From a virus (Duplodnaviria; Heunggongvirae; Uroviricota; Caudoviricetes), in the IMG/VR virus record IMGVR_UViG_2778261058_000010, positions 1 to 7,848 of that record: a stretch of DNA of 7,848 bases; one strand, written 5' to 3'. The notes beneath the pieces are model-generated. The model was given only the letters and a program-made list of their open reading frames with translations. It did no database searches and was not told where the DNA came from. Position numbers and translations under genes: made by a program. Below are positions 1,757 to 7,848 of the stretch, one piece after another. Position 1 is the stretch's first letter. The number at the start of each line of letters is the position of its first letter.

Positions 1757-2107
1757 ATGCCATCACGAATACCCCGCGCCTGTCGTAAGCGTGGATGTGC
1801 AGGCACAACAACAGACAGTTCGGGTTACTGCGATAAGCATCGCGGTGAAGGCTGGGTGCAGCACCAGCGCGGACTGAGCCGCCACCAGCGTGGCTATGGC
1901 TCAAAATGGACGGTGATTCGTGCCCGTATTCTGAAGCGCGATAAAGGTCTGTGTCAGTTGTGTCTGCGTGTCGGTGTGGTGAGCGAGGCGAAAACCGTCG
2001 ACCACATCATCCCGAAAGCGCATGGCGGAACAGACGCAGACAGCAACCTGCAGAGTCTGTGCTGGCCCTGCCATAAAGCGAAAACAGCGCGCGAACGAAT
2101 CAGGTGA
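1757..2107 (+). CDS. HNH endonuclease, phage packaging-associated
   Basis: ATG at 1757 within ORF 1682..2107, preceded by AAGGAG (1744-1749). Cys pairs (CRKRGC; CWPCH) and an HNH-like core (VDHIIPKAHGG...N) are present. It sits directly upstream of the terminase small and large subunit genes, as in HK97-like cos phages. Confidence 0.85.
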   Translation: MPSRIPRACRKRGCAGTTTDSSGYCDKHRGEGWVQHQRGLSRHQRGYGSKWTVIRARILKRDKGLCQLCLRVGVVSEAKTVDHIIPKAHGGTDADSNLQSLCWPCHKAKTARERIR

Positions 2108-2254: not shown

Positions 2255-2737
2255 ATGTCAGGACCCCCGAAAACCCCGCCACGCCTGCATTTGATACGAG
2301 GCAACCCCTCAAAGCGCCCCGTTAAAGACTCCAAAAAAACCGCTAAAAAGGACGAAAAAGGTCTCCCTAAAATTCCGCAGCATTTAGGGGCGCAGGGGAA
2401 GTACTGGTTCAGGCGAATGGCGGAAGAGCTGAATGCGGAAGGGATCATTTCTCAGCTTGATGCGCGTGCACTTGAGTTACTGGTGGAAGCCTACACCGAA
2501 TACCGGCATCACTGCGAAACACTCGATGTTGAGGGGTATACCTACCGCACGGAAACGCAGAATGGCGATGTGATGATCAAGGCACATCCGGCTGCGGCGA
2601 TGAAGGCGGATGCCTGGAAGCGGATCCGGGCGATGCTTGCAGAGTTTGGTATGTCACCGGCAAGCCGGGCGAAAGTAAATATCGCCGGACCGGATGATGT
2701 TGATCCGCTGGCAGAGCTTTTAAAAGCGAGAGACTGA
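2255..2737 (+). CDS. terminase small subunit, P27 family
   Basis: ORF 2255..2737 (160 aa). Basic Pro/Lys-rich N-terminus and overall composition match what I recall of P27-family small terminases. Stop TGA overlaps the terL ATG (cTGATGg at 2735-2739). Confidence 0.8.
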   Translation: MSGPPKTPPRLHLIRGNPSKRPVKDSKKTAKKDEKGLPKIPQHLGAQGKYWFRRMAEELNAEGIISQLDARALELLVEAYTEYRHHCETLDVEGYTYRTETQNGDVMIKAHPAAAMKADAWKRIRAMLAEFGMSPASRAKVNIAGPDDVDPLAELLKARD

Positions 2738-3930
2738 TGGCAAAAGTGGCTGACGGGATCCGCTACGCCGAACGTGTTGTTGCAGGAGAAATTGTCGCTG
2801 GCGAATTTGTCCGTCTGGCCTGCCAGCGTTTTCTTGATGATCTGAAGTACGGCGAAGAGCGGGGGATTTATTTCAGTGAACCCCGTGCGCAGCACATCCT
2901 GAATTTCTACAAATTTGTGCCCCATGTAAAAGGGGCGCTGGCAGGTCAGCCCATTGAACTGATGGACTGGCATGTTTTTATCCTCATTAATATTTTTGGT
3001 TTTGTCATTCCGCTGGTGAATGAAGAGACCGGGGAAGTTGTCATGCGCAGCGATGGCAGCGGACGCCCGGTGATGGTGCGCCGGTTCCGGACAGCGTACA
3101 ACGAAGTCGCCCGTAAAAACGCAAAATCAACCCTGTCATCGGGTATCGGTCTGTATATGACGGGGGCAGATGGTGAAGGCGGGGCTGAGGTGTATTCAGC
3201 CGCAACCACGCGTGACCAGGCCAGAATTGTGTTTGAAGACGCCAAAAATATGGTCAGAAAAGCCCGGTCGACACTCGGGCGATTGTTTGATTTCAACAAG
3301 CTGGCGATTTACCAGGAGCAGAGCGCATCAAAATTTGAACCGCTTTCCTCGGATGCAAACAACCTGGACGGTCTGAACATCCACTGCGCCATTATTGATG
3401 AGCTGCATGCACATAAAACCCGCGACGTGTGGGACGTTCTGGAAACGGCAACCGGTGCCCGTCTGCAGTCCCTGTTATTTGGTATCACCACGGCGGGCTT
3501 TAACAAGGAAGGGATTTGTTACGAGCAACGCGATTACGCCATCAAGGTATTGCGAGGCTATAACAGTGACGTGGAGGGCGCGGTAAAAGACGACTCCTAC
3601 TTTGCGATTATTTACACGCTCGATGAGGGAGATGATCCGTTTGATGAAACGGTCTGGCAGAAAGCGAATCCCGGCCTGGGCATCTGTAAACGCTGGGATG
3701 ATCTGCGTCGTCTGGCGAAAAAAGCGAAGGAGCAGGTTTCAGCACGGGTGAATTTTTTCACGAAGAAAGTAACATCACGCCGTAACAACAGTGCGACCTG
3801 TCCTGATTTTTTTAGTAACCAAATGAAAGAAAAAGATTTTTTCTTGTTCGTCGTTTTTGTTTTTTCTGGAAGGTTCTGGCTGTTTTCATCATTTGTGTAT
3901 TGCACTGTGTATTGCAAAAACGGGTTATAA
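2737..3930 (+). CDS. terminase large subunit (Terminase_1-like), C-terminally truncated, probable pseudogene
   Basis: ORF 2737..3930. Deviant Walker A (ARKNAKST), Walker B (IIDELH) and the W.KANPGLG motif are present. After NFFTKK (codon 344, about 3768) the translation becomes low-complexity and Phe-rich (VTSRRNNSATCPDFF...FLFVVFVF) and the DNA becomes AT-rich. The expected nuclease domain, roughly 200 aa, is missing. Confidence 0.75.
   Translation: MAKVADGIRYAERVVAGEIVAGEFVRLACQRFLDDLKYGEERGIYFSEPRAQHILNFYKFVPHVKGALAGQPIELMDWHVFILINIFGFVIPLVNEETGEVVMRSDGSGRPVMVRRFRTAYNEVARKNAKSTLSSGIGLYMTGADGEGGAEVYSAATTRDQARIVFEDAKNMVRKARSTLGRLFDFNKLAIYQEQSASKFEPLSSDANNLDGLNIHCAIIDELHAHKTRDVWDVLETATGARLQSLLFGITTAGFNKEGICYEQRDYAIKVLRGYNSDVEGAVKDDSYFAIIYTLDEGDDPFDETVWQKANPGLGICKRWDDLRRLAKKAKEQVSARVNFFTKKVTSRRNNSATCPDFFSNQMKEKDFFLFVVFVFSGRFWLFSSFVYCTVYCKNGL
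3894..3916. repeat. tandem 11-bp direct repeat upstream of the integrase
   Basis: tgtgtattgca at 3894-3904 and again at 3906-3916, separated by one base; ends 20 bp before the int ATG. Confidence 0.6.
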
Positions 3931-3935
3931 ATCAC

Positions 3936-5144
3936 ATGGCGCTAAACAAACTGAGCGATAAAAAACTTCGTTCCCTGCTTGGGCGCAGGAGTGAGAGGCA
4001 GGAAACCATCGCTGATGGTAACGGGCTTTCGGTACGGGTCAGTAAATACGGATGTGTTAGTTTTGTTTTCTTTTACAGATTGGCGGGAAGGGGAACCGCG
4101 CCCATCTGGCTGACACTTGGAAAATATCCTGATCTGAGTCTCAAATCAGCGAGAGAGATGCGCGATCAGTGTCGAACCTGGCTTGCGGAGGGCAGAGATC
4201 CACGGATTCAGATAAAAATTGAACGGGAAGCCACCTTGCAACCTGTTACCGTTCGTGAGGCACTTGAATACTGGCTTGATAATTATGCAATGGATAAGCG
4301 TAGGGGAGCAGAACATATCAGGCAGTGCTTTGGTAAACATATTTATCCGGTGATTGGTCATGTACCACTTAGTGATTGCTCTATATCTATGTGGATCAAG
4401 TGTTTTGACAAAATAAAAAAAGTAGCACCTGTACAGGCCGGAGCTTTGTTGCGTATATCAAAACAGGCGCTTAAATTTTGTAGGGTAAGAAAATACGCGA
4501 TTAGTCATGAAATTGATGATCTTGAGGTCTGTGATGTGGGAAAAAAGTCTGCGCGAAGAAGCAGGGTTTTAACAGATGATGAAATCAGAGATTTATGGCG
4601 AAGTATTAATACTGATTATGACAATCACGAATTATCATATGAAAACCGAATTATTTTACGTTTCCTGGTAGTTTTTGGTTGTCGACTGTCAGAAGTATTA
4701 CTGTCGTCCTGGGTAGAGTGGGATTTTGATAAGAAATTATGGCGCGTTCCCGCTGATCATAGCAAAAATGGCAGGGAAATAATCAGACCGATTCCTGATG
4801 GCATGTTTAACTGGTTAGTTACGTTAAAAAAAATAACAGGTAACAAAGAAAATGTGATTGGGTTTGATATGCGTCAGTGTACGGCAAGCGTAACTATCGG
4901 TAAGACATGGAAAAGGATGAAACACTCGGAAAAATGGACGGCGCATGATATGCGAAGAGTGTTTGCCACAAAGCTAAGTGATCATGGTTTTGAACATAAT
5001 GTGGTTGAACAGTTGCTTGGGCACACATTAGGCGGTGTTGCCGGGGTTTATAACAGAAGTCAGTATATGGACAGAAAAAAAGAAGCTATGAACTGGTGGT
5101 ACGACTATCTGAATAAGCTAATTAGTGGTGACGGTAATGATTGA
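3936..5144 (+). CDS. tyrosine site-specific integrase, P4-like
   Basis: ATG at 3936 within ORF 3900..5144. N-terminal arm-binding-like region (MALNKLSDKKL...GNGLSVRVSKYG...LTLGKYPDLSLKSAREMRD) and C-terminal catalytic region (HDMRRVFATKL...LLGH...GVYNRSQY) are typical of P4-type integrases. Confidence 0.9.
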   Translation: MALNKLSDKKLRSLLGRRSERQETIADGNGLSVRVSKYGCVSFVFFYRLAGRGTAPIWLTLGKYPDLSLKSAREMRDQCRTWLAEGRDPRIQIKIEREATLQPVTVREALEYWLDNYAMDKRRGAEHIRQCFGKHIYPVIGHVPLSDCSISMWIKCFDKIKKVAPVQAGALLRISKQALKFCRVRKYAISHEIDDLEVCDVGKKSARRSRVLTDDEIRDLWRSINTDYDNHELSYENRIILRFLVVFGCRLSEVLLSSWVEWDFDKKLWRVPADHSKNGREIIRPIPDGMFNWLVTLKKITGNKENVIGFDMRQCTASVTIGKTWKRMKHSEKWTAHDMRRVFATKLSDHGFEHNVVEQLLGHTLGGVAGVYNRSQYMDRKKEAMNWWYDYLNKLISGDGND

Positions 5145-5358
5145 AATAGTTACGCGTGAAGAACTTGAAAATGATAAAACAATCGACAGGATGATTAAGG
5201 AAGATGAATGTGCATGGTTAACAGCTCTTGGCCGGAGACACAGAGCATTACTTGAAAAGGAAGGAAAATTTCCACGGAAAATATGTATTGGCCCACAAAC
5301 AAAAGTCTGGCGCTTATCTGAGGTGCTGGAATGGGTAAAGGGTGAATGGAAACCCTGA
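5137..5358 (+). CDS. AlpA-family transcriptional regulator (helix-turn-helix)
   Basis: ATG at 5137 overlaps the int stop (ATGATTGA, 5137-5144), implying translational coupling. The 73-aa product carries the AlpA-like pattern (...LTALGRRHRALLEKEGKFP...W.LSEVLEWV). Confidence 0.8.
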   Translation: MIEIVTREELENDKTIDRMIKEDECAWLTALGRRHRALLEKEGKFPRKICIGPQTKVWRLSEVLEWVKGEWKP

Positions 5359-5382
5359 ACTAAATTAAATGAGATATAATCA

Positions 5383-5407
5383 ACCCGTCTTTTGGCGGGT
5401 TTTTTTA
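5383..5407 (+). terminator. weak intrinsic terminator-like hairpin between the two AlpA-like genes
   Basis: Short stem acccg / cgggt (5383-5400) followed by T7 at 5401-5407. The stem is only about 5 bp. Confidence 0.3.
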
Positions 5408-5421
5408 TAGGTGATATTTTT

Positions 5422-5700
5422 ATGCAAAAATTTATTTATCCTACACCCGAAGAACGCATTCAGATTCTGAAAGAACATGGCGAACCGTATGATCGCCGTA
5501 TACGCGAACATGAGTGTGCCAATCGTACCGGGCTTTCAAGAAGCAGACGTTGGGTACTTGAACAGGAGGGAGCATTTCCTGCTCGTGCTCATTTAGGGAA
5601 AGTGTCTGTTTCCTGGTTGCTCTCTGATGTGCTCTGGTGGGTTATGCATCCGCCAGGAGTAAAGGAAGTAAACAGCCCATACAAAAACGCCAATAAGTAA
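5422..5700 (+). CDS. AlpA-like helix-turn-helix regulator, second copy
   Basis: ATG at 5422 within ORF 5392..5700; AGGTGA at 5409-5414 with a 7-nt spacer. Contains an AlpA-like core (ECANRTGLSRSRRWVLEQEGAFP...VSVSWLLSDVLWW). Confidence 0.7.
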   Translation: MQKFIYPTPEERIQILKEHGEPYDRRIREHECANRTGLSRSRRWVLEQEGAFPARAHLGKVSVSWLLSDVLWWVMHPPGVKEVNSPYKNANK

Positions 5701-5709
5701 TTACCGACA

Positions 5710-5739
5710 CCCCCGCACCACGCAATGCGGGGTTTTTTG
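5710..5739 (+). terminator. Rho-independent terminator
   Basis: GC stem ccccgca (5711-5717) / tgcgggg (5726-5732) followed by T6 at 5733-5738, just after the second AlpA-like stop. Confidence 0.6.
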
Positions 5740-5757
5740 TATGTGAGGTAGAAAGTG

Positions 5758-6351
5758 ATGAATAAAAATATTGCCGCGACGGGCAAGGGTGACGCACGTC
5801 ATGTGAAAAAATTCTGTGATATTCGTGATCTGGTCGTTCTGCGCTTTGATAGTGTGAACGTTCGCGTGGTGTATCTGAACGGCGATCCGTGGTTTGTTGG
5901 CGCTGATGTGTGTGCGGCGCTGGAAATTAGCAACGTTACCGATGCTGTTTCAGTTCTGGATAGCGATGAGGTAATGACCCTAGCTTTAACCGAGGGTCAT
6001 TCAGGTAAGCGTGGTGGTGCCAGAAGTTGGAATGTTGTATCAGAATCAGGTTTTTACAAGTTGATCGCCAGAAGTCGCAAAGCTGTTAATCCTGGCACGT
6101 TCGCCCATCGTTTCAGTAATTGGGTATTCAGAAATGTGATACCGGGTATCAGAAAAACGGGGGCTTATGGTATCCCGTGGGGCGCATTACAGGATTTTTC
6201 CCGCCGCAAAGAGCAATACCAGATAAGTGCCAGTGAGAAGGGGAGGGCGCTACAGGCATGTAAGCGCAAAAAGCGTGAACTGGAGGAAGAAGAAAAAAGG
6301 CTGATACGTGAATATCAGCCTGAGTTTTACTTTGGTGAGCGTATTCAGTAA
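5758..6351 (+). CDS. Bro-N domain protein, putative antirepressor
   Basis: ORF 5755..6351 (GTG 5755 / ATG 5758; GAGG at 5745-5748). N-terminal segment VVYLNGDPWFVGADVCAALEISN is Bro-N-like; the C-terminus is basic/acidic and coiled-coil-like. Confidence 0.75.
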   Translation: MNKNIAATGKGDARHVKKFCDIRDLVVLRFDSVNVRVVYLNGDPWFVGADVCAALEISNVTDAVSVLDSDEVMTLALTEGHSGKRGGARSWNVVSESGFYKLIARSRKAVNPGTFAHRFSNWVFRNVIPGIRKTGAYGIPWGALQDFSRRKEQYQISASEKGRALQACKRKKRELEEEEKRLIREYQPEFYFGERIQ

Positions 6352-6419
6352 CCGCGTACGGTGCTGATTATACGGTACATCGTGTTAACCGGGAAGTTAC
6401 CCACCAGCAAGGCAAAATC

Positions 6420-6467
6420 TTCTGCTAAAAAATGACATATGGCCAGCCGTCCGGAAAGCATGAAATT
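6420..6467. repeat. copy B of the 48-bp imperfect direct repeat (partner at 1245-1292)
   Basis: See copy A. The 20-bp exact core is at 6448-6467. Lies in the convergent intergenic region after the Bro-N gene. Confidence 0.7.
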
Positions 6468-6509
6468 TTACAAAAATGGAAAATGAAGATTTTTATTGTG
6501 CTGGTGGGT

Positions 6510-6540
6510 AAAAACAAAAAGCGCCCCGTTGCCGGAGCGC
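6510..6540 (-). terminator. Rho-independent terminator (minus strand)
   Basis: On the minus strand: stem gcgctccg / cggggcgc (one G-U pair) with a GCAA tetraloop (plus 6521-6540), followed by TTTTTGTTTTT (plus 6510-6520). Confidence 0.6.
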
Positions 6541-6634
6541 TCTTGCGAACAATTAACCTACTGCGCAAAAAATGAATCTGTGCGGGGGGATTATATCAAC
6601 CGTGGTCGAAATGACCATAGTTGCAGGATAACAG

Positions 6635-6664
6635 GCAAAACAAAGGCCACCCGCTACGGTGGCC
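6635..6664 (-). terminator. Rho-independent terminator (minus strand)
   Basis: On the minus strand: stem ggccacc / ggtggcc (plus 6645-6664) followed by TTTGTTTTG (plus 6635-6643). About 130 nt downstream of the 50-aa gene stop. Confidence 0.55.
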
Positions 6665-6794
6665 CCTTGACACAAGCTACACGTTATCCCCAACGCATGA
6701 GCATAGCCAACAATGCCACATTTACGGCTGGTGGGCAAATCCTGAGCTGTTCTGTAATTACAGGAACTACGGCATTGTCGCGGTTAGGTTATGC

Positions 6795-7001: not shown

Positions 7002-7181
7002 TTATTCTGATTCTTTGGCCTTGCGGCGCTGGCGGCGTTTGATCTCGCCACGCATGGCTGTAACGATAAACTGCGCGTCTGTTTCGTTTTCCTCTTTGAC
7101 AAAATTCATTTCGCTTAAAACTTCTAGAGGGATTCTAGCCGTTTTTTGTTGTGATTTGTTGTTGGTTGTACCCGTTGGCAT
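7002..7181 (-). CDS. small putative DNA-binding protein (59 aa), possibly ribbon-helix-helix-like
   Basis: Internal ATG of ORF 7002..7349 (plus 7179-7181) is preceded by a perfect AAGGAGG (plus 7189-7195) with a 6-nt spacer. Product MPTGTTNNKSQQKTARIPLEVLSEMNFVKEENETDAQFIVTAMRGEIKRRQRRKAKESE. The strand/helix-like pattern and basic tail suggest a small regulator; fold assignment is inference. Confidence 0.5.
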   Translation of the reverse strand: MPTGTTNNKSQQKTARIPLEVLSEMNFVKEENETDAQFIVTAMRGEIKRRQRRKAKESE

Positions 7182-7374: not shown

Positions 7375-7581
7375 ATGAGAAATCATACCACACACCCGCA
7401 AGGGCGGGACTCGCACAACCTGAATAAATATATCTGGCGTTTTATCGCTCTGAGCACGGCACAACCGCGCGTGATTACCATTGAGGCCACCAGCGAACAG
7501 GAAGCACGCCAGCAATCTCCTGATGGCTGTGTGATGGTATTCGCCGCCCGTATTCGCCAGGGGGTGCACCATGTGCAATAA
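7375..7581 (+). CDS. Icd-like (host cell division inhibitor-like) small protein
   Basis: ATG at 7375 inside the spurious long ORF 6496..7581; GAGG at 7366-7369 with a 5-nt spacer. The 68-aa product (MRNHTTHPQGR...VITIEATSEQEARQQSPDGCVMVFAARIRQ) resembles Icd-like proteins of P4-like elements as I remember them. Confidence 0.5.
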   Translation: MRNHTTHPQGRDSHNLNKYIWRFIALSTAQPRVITIEATSEQEARQQSPDGCVMVFAARIRQGVHHVQ

Positions 7582-7831
7582 CCCACGTCCGGACGCAGCA
7601 GCCGCCGCGCTCACTACGCTGATGCACGCGCTGATTGATATTTCATGCACGGCAGCAAACGTAGAAAAACACATTGCCAGAGAGACGGAATATGCTGGGG
7701 CTTTAGTTCCTCATTCACTGGCTGTTATGCAACTTAGTGCTGATATGGCACTGAATGAGGCCAAAGCCATCCTGATTGCTGATTGTGAAAATGGGGGGGG
7801 GTTATGCGTGATGATCGTTTTAATGCCCTGA
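7571..7831 (+). CDS. hypothetical protein (86 aa); reading frame depends on the G9 tract
   Basis: ATG at 7571 overlaps the Icd-like stop (ATGTGCAATAA). The frame ends shortly after the G9 run at 7793-7801. One extra G would fuse it to the downstream ORF. Confidence 0.3.
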   Translation: MCNNPRPDAAAAALTTLMHALIDISCTAANVEKHIARETEYAGALVPHSLAVMQLSADMALNEAKAILIADCENGGGLCVMIVLMP

Positions 7832-7848
7832 AACAGGAATTTGATGGC
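7804..7848 (+). CDS. hypothetical protein, 3'-partial (runs off the window)
   Basis: ATG at 7804 immediately after the G9 tract, which could serve as a Shine-Dalgarno sequence. Translation MRDDRFNALKQEFDG... is open to the window end. Confidence 0.3.
   Translation, partial: MRDDRFNALKQEFDG

Follow-up and report, generated by a model that had tools for sequence, protein, structure and literature searches.

The window, that is, the whole stretch of 7,848 nucleotides analysed here, carries prophage lysis, HNH and small terminase (terS) genes upstream of a cut large terminase gene (terL), followed by an integrase gene and a series of satellite genes (Table 1). In relatives, complete prophage lies on both sides. 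The 351-nt homologue of the HNH gene carries an HNH endonuclease annotation in loci L001, L002 and L005, and the small terminase gene carries the same annotation in relatives. The integrase gene (int), both alpA genes and the Bro-N gene were found on the + strand like terL, and the primase gene, located beyond the window, is co-oriented in relatives. The initial annotation had described the genes downstream of terL as satellite- or island-like, and searches with Pfam and NCBIfam confirmed two AlpA genes, a Bro-N gene, a YlcI/YnfO gene and an Icd-like gene. The YlcI/YnfO gene is likewise annotated in L001 and L002, and a zone scheme with a Bro zone is given in the work on helper-embedded PICIs (HE-PICIs) by Tommasini, Mageeney & Williams (NAR Genom Bioinform 2023; PMC10111431). 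An identical copy of the 86-aa protein is encoded by PICI/cf-PICI-like elements located at chromosomal sites and equipped with other integrases. P4 CI-like RNAs (Rfam C4, isrK) gave no match at E <= 0.1 over the whole window.

Table 1 Features of the 7,848-nt window, with positions counted from its first nucleotide.
Feature	Positions	Strand	Basis
Helper prophage HNH endonuclease, accessory gene of HNH/P27-TerS/TerL packaging modules	1757..2107	+	Pfam HNH, E 2.5e-16
Helper prophage small terminase, P27 family / Terminase_4	2255..2737	+	Pfam Terminase_4, E 3.3e-26
Helper prophage terL 5' fragment, residues 1-343 (whole ATPase, start of nuclease domain)	2737..3764	+	Evi TerL alignment, Pfam
attL crossover core TCACGAA, 7 bp, terL codons F341-T342-K343	3758..3764	+	attL/attR of relatives
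Satellite attP right arm, AT-rich, GC 0.38-0.40	3765..3935	+	no TerL homology
Doubled motif TGTATTGCacTGTGTATTGC, HE-PICI-specific arm motif, presumed arm-type binding site	3896..3915	+	exact match
Satellite tyrosine integrase, 402 aa, apparently intact	3936..5144	+	Pfam
First AlpA-family gene (regulator/excisionase family)	5137..5358	+	Pfam Phage_AlpA, E 2.5e-09
Second AlpA-family gene	5422..5700	+	Pfam Phage_AlpA, E 7.2e-10
Bro-N domain gene, 'Bro zone' of gram-negative PICIs	5758..6351	+	Pfam Bro-N, E 1.8e-16
YlcI/YnfO family gene	7002..7181	-	NCBIfam NF041551, E 1.4e-16
Icd-like host cell division inhibitor gene	7375..7581	+	NCBIfam NF033153, E 9.5e-20
86-aa satellite ORF, upstream of DUF4222/primase replication zone in relatives	7571..7831	+	

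An ORF call on the window confirmed a 397-aa frame at 2737-3930. Protein alignment showed that residues 1-343 were identical at 342 of 343 positions to the 585-aa TerL of Escherichia phage Evi, and that from residue 344 the two proteins were unrelated (KVTSRRNNSATCPDFF... in the window versus HMNVWVTAESAWMDMI... in Evi). The 5' part of terL shared 97% nucleotide identity with phage terL genes, ending at 3758-3764. The DNA and protein alignments together placed the breakpoint at 3764/3765, with TerL homology stopping at K343, which is 4 nt off the position (about 3768) up to which the initial annotation had considered the gene family-typical. GC content, 0.50-0.54 within terL, was lower at 0.38-0.40 over 3701-4000. 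The last 54 codons of the ORF (stop codon at 3928-3930) are read-through into foreign AT-rich DNA, and the sequence after 3764 had no similarity to TerL in either the DNA or the protein alignments, in agreement with the earlier description of an AT-rich nonsense tail. The Pfam TerL_ATPase domain was complete (aa 112-268 of the 397-aa ORF), and the TerL_nuclease profile was matched only at positions 2-68 (67 of 286). The nuclease domain, initially reported as missing, is therefore truncated near its start rather than wholly absent.

The exact 397-aa read-through protein is on record in 946 sample blocks. A functional role of the C-terminal tail was considered and rejected, because a 1-nt difference in the length of a T run shifts the tail frame in 7 of 36 genomes, E. 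coli 042 included (632 bases in the record versus 631 in the query), and the tail frame is thus not conserved. The same frame shift weighs against the explanation that terL is uninterrupted here, either because members of this TerL family normally measure about 345-400 aa or because the tail after 3768 is still terminase. This explanation, which the initial annotation had raised for a length of about 345 aa, agrees with an ORF that stays open to 3930 and with gene callers that give a 397-aa protein; however, the close homologues are 585 aa long, homology ends at 3764 and only about a quarter of the nuclease profile is covered, and we attach practically no probability to it.

The core TCACGAA at the end of the terL fragment is a synonymous variant of TTACCAA, the core of most copies. 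The element of strain 2014C-3075 has TCACGAA at attL and attR both, and the elements of 042 and ETEC4090 have TTACCAA at both ends. The initial annotation had suggested a search for an uninterrupted terL, and such an empty site was found for each allele: TCACGAA in the intact terL of E. coli E30 and 60 genomes (32-nt query), and TTACCAA in the terL of phage Evi. The corresponding 32-nt query for TTACCAA gave no match, its T7 run being probably masked by low-complexity filtering, and the 60 genomes therefore yield no ratio between the alleles. The published 'Att Identity' entries for the site group A_Terminase_1_246 include both ttaccaa and tcacgaa (PMC10111431). ARAGORN detected no tRNA in the window, which supports the earlier statement that a tRNA is absent at the junction. 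No terminator-like site or hairpin was found on the + strand between the terL fragment and int (3765-3935).

Within the AT-rich arm, the doubled motif TGTATTGCnnTGTGTATTGC was an exact 20-nt match, with 0.00 matches expected by chance. The motif follows the core, with a start-to-start distance of 138 nt in the window and in L003 and L005, and of 139 nt in L002; L002, L003 and L005 each have another copy that begins 95 nt ahead of the attR core, the window spanning the right arm only. A doubled motif with fixed spacing has been reported for HE-PICIs (PMC10111431), and tgTGTATTGCantgTGTATTGCa stands at set distances on either side of the attP centre, its left arm being seen in relatives.

The integrase start codon lies 171 nt past the breakpoint. 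The protein contains the Pfam domains Arm-DNA-bind_3 (1e-17) and Phage_integrase (1.4e-18) and is 99-100% identical to the integrases of other copies, with differences confined to the last 5 residues (402 aa in the window versus 407 aa). The initial label 'P4-type' was appropriate for the domain architecture, but the score against NCBIfam PRK09692 was 111 bits versus a cut-off of 434, and the HE-PICI integrase clade nests in a larger PICI/P4 clade (PMC10111431). In 5426 complete E. coli genomes, the integrase gene occurred only beside the terL 5' fragment and in no other context. The element of 042, a listed member of A_Terminase_1_246, carries a 631-nt attP-arm/int stretch that is 99.1% identical to the window DNA, strong indirect evidence that the integrase of the window falls in the HE-PICI clade, in the subclade of this site group. 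This integrase clade uses terL itself as its attB, and the initial proposal that an integrative element had entered a packaging gene of the prophage, at an atypical target, was correct.

The same junction was present in 36 of the 5426 complete E. coli genomes (39 copies), and 35 of these 36 also hold the matching attR beside the terL 3' half, where the neighbouring gene is annotated 'TerL endonuclease, missing N-terminus'. One 7-bp core is common to attL and attR within each genome of the relatives, whose elements measure 14,049-15,245 bp; in full-length relatives, the second core at attR is the matching att repeat for which a search had been advised. The nuclease-encoding 3' part of terL lies 14-15 kb downstream in complete copies and, from codon 344 onward, begins ACACATGAATGTGTGGGT. 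In-silico deletion from core to core in three complete relatives rebuilt a 585-aa TerL, 96-99.5% identical to Evi TerL. Relatives thus show the features of HE-PICIs, namely a short attL/attR block, an attP without replacement sequence and an exactly restored terL. Since attP brings no replacement sequence, the terL frame enters the AT-rich attP arm and stops after 54 meaningless codons.

A non-specific deletion or an illegitimate-recombination scar that joined prophage terL to an unrelated integrative island had also been put forward, as a secondary rearrangement, and the initial annotation had leaned towards the latter for want of a tRNA. The junction lacks a tRNA or other classical att target, as such a scar might, and an abrupt GC drop is expected of any join between unrelated DNAs. 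However, every copy examined is joined at this 7-bp core, which recurs at the far end of the element with the terL 3' half directly behind it, and the frame is restored exactly when the element is removed. Moreover, two different prophages of a single genome were struck at the same codon in ETEC4090, and also in CP025676. A scar is very improbable on these grounds, and site-specific insertion is the reading retained below.

The window stops at 7848, approximately 10-11 kb before the expected attR; excision and att pairing were computed on relatives, and it is in relatives that a right junction, a terL 3' half and satellite head and packaging genes were seen. Among complete E. coli genomes no match to the whole window was obtained (best, 97.2% identity over 76%), and exact-protein look-ups returned related, non-identical loci, with no public locus identical to the window being found. 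The window copy may also be decayed, because right-end deletions are seen in three relatives: in L001 (the first copy of ETEC4090) the DUF927 primase is truncated and fused to a helper tail completion gene, in L006 (GF31) the Icd-like gene is fused to a tail-fibre fragment and attR is lacking, and L019 passes from DUF927 directly into helper head genes. If the window copy had the same attL origin but were an immobile remnant whose right part and attR were later deleted, terL could never be restored and the composite would be a dead prophage. Over 2869-6738 the window is closest to GF31 (99.1%), and many helpers appear truncated (PMC10111431). We nevertheless consider decay of this copy unlikely: attR junctions are kept in nearly all of the complete genomes with this integrase (35 of 36), the integrase in the window is intact, no truncation or frameshift other than that of terL occurs within the window, and the window runs past the GF31 deletion point (~7517) to 7848 with 97.5-99% identity to other PICIs.

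These results indicate that the segment 3751-3938 is very probably the attL of an HE-PICI of site group A:Terminase_1:246, inserted inside and co-oriented with the terL of a lambdoid E. coli prophage. The group bears this name in PMC10111431, where the main text has A:Terminase_1:245; the same source catalogues the E. coli 042 element as Eco33.15.A_Terminase_1_246, with the att identity 'ttaccaa' and the note 'reannotate term_int fusion'. The window shares with the group the target gene, the codon and the 7-bp identity blocks (ttaccaa / tcacgaa), the attL arm sequence printed in the published alignment, the doubled TGTATTGC motif with its fixed spacing, and the gene order int, AlpA, Bro zone. 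Nothing substantive differs from the catalogue, the window having the less common core TCACGAA and an integrase of 402 aa instead of 407 aa, owing to its C-terminus. Site-specific satellite insertion in prophage terL is already known, and the window is a further instance; the 2023 publication already covers the phenomenon, the site, the two core variants and even a sister copy (E. coli 042), and the value as a discovery is small.

Compared with satellite P4, the element has the same integrase architecture (Arm-DNA-bind_3 plus catalytic domain) and the common themes of AlpA, Bro-family, Icd-like and primase genes. It differs in its target, terL in a window without tRNA (ARAGORN), in the lack of a detected CI, C4 or isrK RNA within the window, and in an integrase score far below the PRK09692 cut-off. 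P4 itself is without capsid genes. A parallel in the mode of insertion is 11capE, in which a late gene is likewise broken, without replacement sequence, by a co-oriented satellite that brings along a homologue of the gene it disrupts. In 11capE, however, the target is the capsid gene E instead of terL, the core differs, and terS is absent, with packaging presumed to use the helper cos, whereas the terL-site elements have a full head and packaging set. Experiments on 11capE showed excision of the composite, then replication, then excision of the satellite; in the literature consulted, excision after induction is shown by experiment for this capsid-gene element only.

The satellite's own packaging genes were further compared with those of cf-PICIs, whose prototype is EcCIEDL933 (Alqurainy et al., bioRxiv 10.1101/2022.09.08.507074) and for which a model was given by de Sousa et al. 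2023 (PMC10085698). EcCIEDL933 was shown by experiment to form its own small capsids and to take only tails from the helper (bioRxiv 10.1101/2022.09.08.507074). L002, L003 and L005 carry their own capsid, protease, portal, connector, HNH, TerS and TerL genes without tail genes, and L016-L021 carry the same capsid-to-TerL set in the portion retrieved. In full-length relatives, capsid, prohead protease, portal, head-tail connector, HNH, TerS and TerL follow the proteobacterial cf-PICI order. Satellite and helper TerL share 32% identity, and the DNA of the 6-kb capsid-to-TerL zone is 98.5% identical to the corresponding zone of elements with another integrase beside the ilv operon. On the other hand, E. 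coli cf-PICIs use six chromosomal attB sites (bioRxiv 10.1101/2022.09.08.507074) rather than a prophage terL, the integrase here is very probably of the HE-PICI clade, and zero cf-PICI genes lie inside the 7,848-nt window. The term cf-PICI is absent from PMC10111431, and no paper stating a link between the two classes was found.

The satellite splits terL into an ATPase-encoding 5' part, within the window, and a nuclease-encoding 3' part, found 14-15 kb downstream in complete copies. While the satellite is integrated, the helper would be unable to make TerL. Upon prophage induction, helper late transcription through terS and the terL fragment would be expected to continue into int and alpA; the satellite would then excise, which, judging from the computed restoration, should make terL functional again. 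The initial conclusion that the prophage cannot package on its own thus applies to the integrated state but not beyond it, as the helper would package again only once the satellite is gone. By analogy with cf-PICIs, the satellite might pack itself in its own small capsids, the helper supplying only tails and lysis functions. The prophage could be a mere donor of this kind because the satellite splits the helper terL, sits in the late operon and carries a full head and packaging set. We suggest, tentatively and as a possibility we still doubt, that terL-embedded satellites are cf-PICIs that swapped their integration module for an HE-PICI integrase, turning helper prophages, Stx-converting ones included, into donors of tails and lysis functions.

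The residual ATPase-only TerL fragment could hamper related terminases, and the synonymous core alleles TTACCAA and TCACGAA could mirror phage escape and satellite pursuit. In terms of annotation, read-through into attP makes the 397-aa 'terminase' ORF an artefact; the prophage is better annotated as a helper-satellite composite, and terL as a gene whose integrity hinges on satellite excision. Shiga-toxin prophages are among the carriers, so whether the satellite is present, and in what condition, could influence how well these phages spread.

The prophage part of the window was, by its ORFs and Pfam matches, the late region of a lambdoid prophage. In the terL-derived ORF, 342 of the first 343 residues were shared with the 585-aa TerL of Escherichia phage Evi, and protein and DNA alignment from residue 344 on found zero similarity to it. 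Nucleotide similarity to phage terL genes stopped at the 7-bp att core, the nuclease profile was matched at positions 2-68 of 286 only with the ATPase domain entire, and GC content across 3701-4000 fell from 0.50-0.54 to 0.38-0.40. The initial annotation had terL cut near 3768, followed by non-homologous DNA and int, with no tRNA at the junction; the window holds no tRNA. Since TerL alignment, Pfam, GC, gene content and tRNA absence agree, that description was accurate to within 4 nt. Pfam/NCBIfam-type profile matches likewise recovered its AlpA, Bro-N and Icd-like genes downstream of int, in the order AlpA (twice), Bro-N, YlcI/YnfO (minus strand), Icd-like.

Features of the window and gene blocks of the complete elements
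Feature	Position (nt)	Description
M15 endolysin	173-556	helper late region
HNH endonuclease	1757-2107	helper late region
Small terminase	2255-2737	P27-family; helper late region
terL-derived ORF	2737-3930	397 codons; directly after small terminase
att core	3758-3764	TCACGAA
Variable T run	3837-3842	
Doubled motif	3896-3915	tgTGTATTGCantgTGTATTGCa
Tyrosine integrase	start 3936	402 aa, intact; Arm-DNA-bind_3 and catalytic domain
Conserved block	6509-6651	
Candidate antisense small RNA	6510-6620	minus strand
Its promoter-like site	6617-6590	TGGTCA-16-TATAAT with TG extension, 10/12 matches
Its terminator	6544-6517	12-bp GC-rich hairpin and U run
Second hairpin near it	6667-6642	
86-aa ORF	7571-7831	
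Complete element, first block		int, AlpA, AlpA, Bro-N, YlcI, Icd-like
Complete element, second block		DUF4222, primase or helicase, SSB, then PerC or ProQ
Complete element, third block		major capsid, prohead protease, portal, head-tail connector, HNH, TerS, TerL

The initial annotation left two alternatives, an integrative element within the packaging gene at an atypical target, or a deletion/recombination scar or secondary rearrangement. The window core lies over codons F341-T342-K343 and encodes the same residues as TTACCAA. In any one genome, attL had the same core as attR (the right junction, beside the terL 3' half), TTACCAA in E. coli 042 and ETEC4090 and TCACGAA in 2014C-3075, and no mixed pair occurred in the three complete copies (042, the second ETEC4090 copy and 2014C-3075). 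Core-to-core deletion of the element in silico yielded a 585-aa TerL with 96-99.5% identity to that of phage Evi. Both core versions also occurred in uninterrupted terL genes: phage Evi carries TTACCAA, and E. coli E30 and at least 60 genomes carry TCACGAA. These alignments indicate that the window junction is a site-specific insertion into terL, as the first alternative had it; the core at both ends of the complete copies and the rebuilt terL rule out a scar or rearrangement. The core alleles differ by synonymous third-position changes only, TTT ACC versus TTC ACG (window compared with loci L004, 4022-4028, and L007, 6634-6640).

The terL-int junction was present in 36 of 5426 complete E. coli genomes (39 copies), and attR in 35 of these 36; the integrase with its upstream arm occurred in no non-terL context among the 5426. 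In 042, the second ETEC4090 copy and the Stx1d strain 2014C-3075, the integrase begins a 14.0-15.2 kb element, directly 3' of which lie a fragment, 'TerL endonuclease, missing N-terminus', and the helper portal, protease and capsid genes. ETEC4090 (L001, L003) and CP025676.1 (L020, L021) each carried two satellite copies, in terL of two different prophages. The two ETEC4090 helpers differ in their tails, with lambda-like gpJ tail genes in one and a tail-sheath gene in the second; phages of differing tail types are therefore targeted at the identical terL codon.

Helper-embedded PICIs (HE-PICIs) were described by Tommasini, Mageeney & Williams (2023) as satellites of one integrase clade, inserted co-oriented at 14 sites within nine prophage late genes (PMC10111431). 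Their supplementary group A_Terminase_1_246 has the att identity 'ttaccaa' or 'tcacgaa' and includes Eco33.15.A_Terminase_1_246 (FN554766.1/2250958-2235714, E. coli 042; helper Eco33.57.zinT|mtfA) (PMC10111431). The arm in their printed attL alignment is the same as the window from 3765 on. A doubled motif, HE-PICI-only and at fixed distances either side of the attP centre (PMC10111431), was present in the window (chance expectation 0.00 matches). It starts 138 nt from the core start in the window, the second ETEC4090 copy and 2014C-3075, and 139 nt in 042, owing to one additional T; the left-arm copy begins 95 nt upstream of the attR core in 3/3 complete relatives. The window feature is another instance of this described system, and so of low interest as a discovery.

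By alignment, residues 344-397 correspond to the attP arm translated in the terL frame, which is what the initial annotation had called a Phe-rich nonsense tail. This frame is not conserved: a 1-nt difference in T-run length (around 20068 in L002, the 042 locus) shifts it in 7 of the 36 genomes, recognised by a record span of 632 bases against the 631-base query. In 042 and six other genomes the difference joins the terL read-through ORF to int, giving annotated 'terminase-integrase' fusion ORFs or integrases with an N-terminal extension. The 042 fusion explains the table remark 'reannotate term_int fusion' on Eco33.15.A_Terminase_1_246 (PMC10111431). As the arm DNA itself is conserved, the protein collection has the exact 397-aa product in 946 sample blocks.

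The gene set defining proteobacterial capsid-forming PICIs (cf-PICIs) is present whole in the complete terL-embedded elements. Their capsid-to-TerL DNA has 98.5% identity with elements beside the ilv operon that have a different integrase, which suggests that the terL-embedded form is of cf-PICI type and has exchanged its integration module. The term cf-PICI is absent from PMC10111431, and de Sousa et al. just remark that prophage-embedded satellites call for future work; the HE-PICI/cf-PICI link is one small point for which we found no published statement. The 86-aa ORF is the same, residue for residue, in PICI/cf-PICI-like elements (L008-L015) with different integrases at chromosomal sites, for example beside the ilv operon leader, and in some the HK97-type head module is replaced by a lambda-E-type capsid gene. 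Its presence across different integrases and late genes shows that integration and late modules are swapped freely about a common central part. A candidate antisense small RNA of ~65-70 nt lies after the Bro-N gene, before the YlcI/Icd region (fold -26.5 kcal/mol, z -2.65), which matched no Rfam family; the block around it is ~91% conserved in PICIs with other integrases (L008, L009, L013, L015).

The window stops at 7848, ~10-11 kb short of the expected attR. A minority of copies have decayed through right-end deletions, which recurrently start within the satellite, in its primase or Icd-like gene, and reach structural genes of the helper. The primase is joined to a tail completion gene in the first ETEC4090 copy (L001, 25208-26920) and directly followed by helper head genes in another copy (L019, 15584-18573), and the Icd-like gene is joined to a tail-fibre fragment in GF31 (L006, 21415-22847). 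Such deletions take out attR and lock terL split. GF31 is the closest relative of the window across 2869-6738, but the window sequence goes on normally beyond the GF31 deletion point, and we consider it unlikely that the window's copy is such a remnant.

The attP carries no replacement sequence, and the helper would be without TerL until the satellite departs. The satellite is co-oriented with the helper late operon, and the stretch from the terL fragment to int had no terminator-like hairpin on its + strand. Induction experiments on 11capE, which sits in a capsid gene, showed excision and replication of the helper-satellite composite, with the satellite excising later (PMC10111431). By analogy, the same succession may apply here after induction, and helper late transcripts may run on into the satellite, as those authors proposed (PMC10111431). 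Because complete elements hold the full cf-PICI gene set, with a TerL only 32% identical to that of the helper, the satellites would package themselves, the helper supplying just tails and lysis functions. The earlier claim that the prophage 'cannot package on its own' holds only while the satellite is integrated; in silico, its excision from the complete relatives restores terL exactly. Helpers with a satellite in terL include Shiga-toxin prophages, with stxA1d/stxB1d in 2014C-3075 (L005, 11643-12869) and a RIP and SLT_beta gene pair in L017 (5286-6521). Packaging of these Stx phages would hinge on satellite excision.
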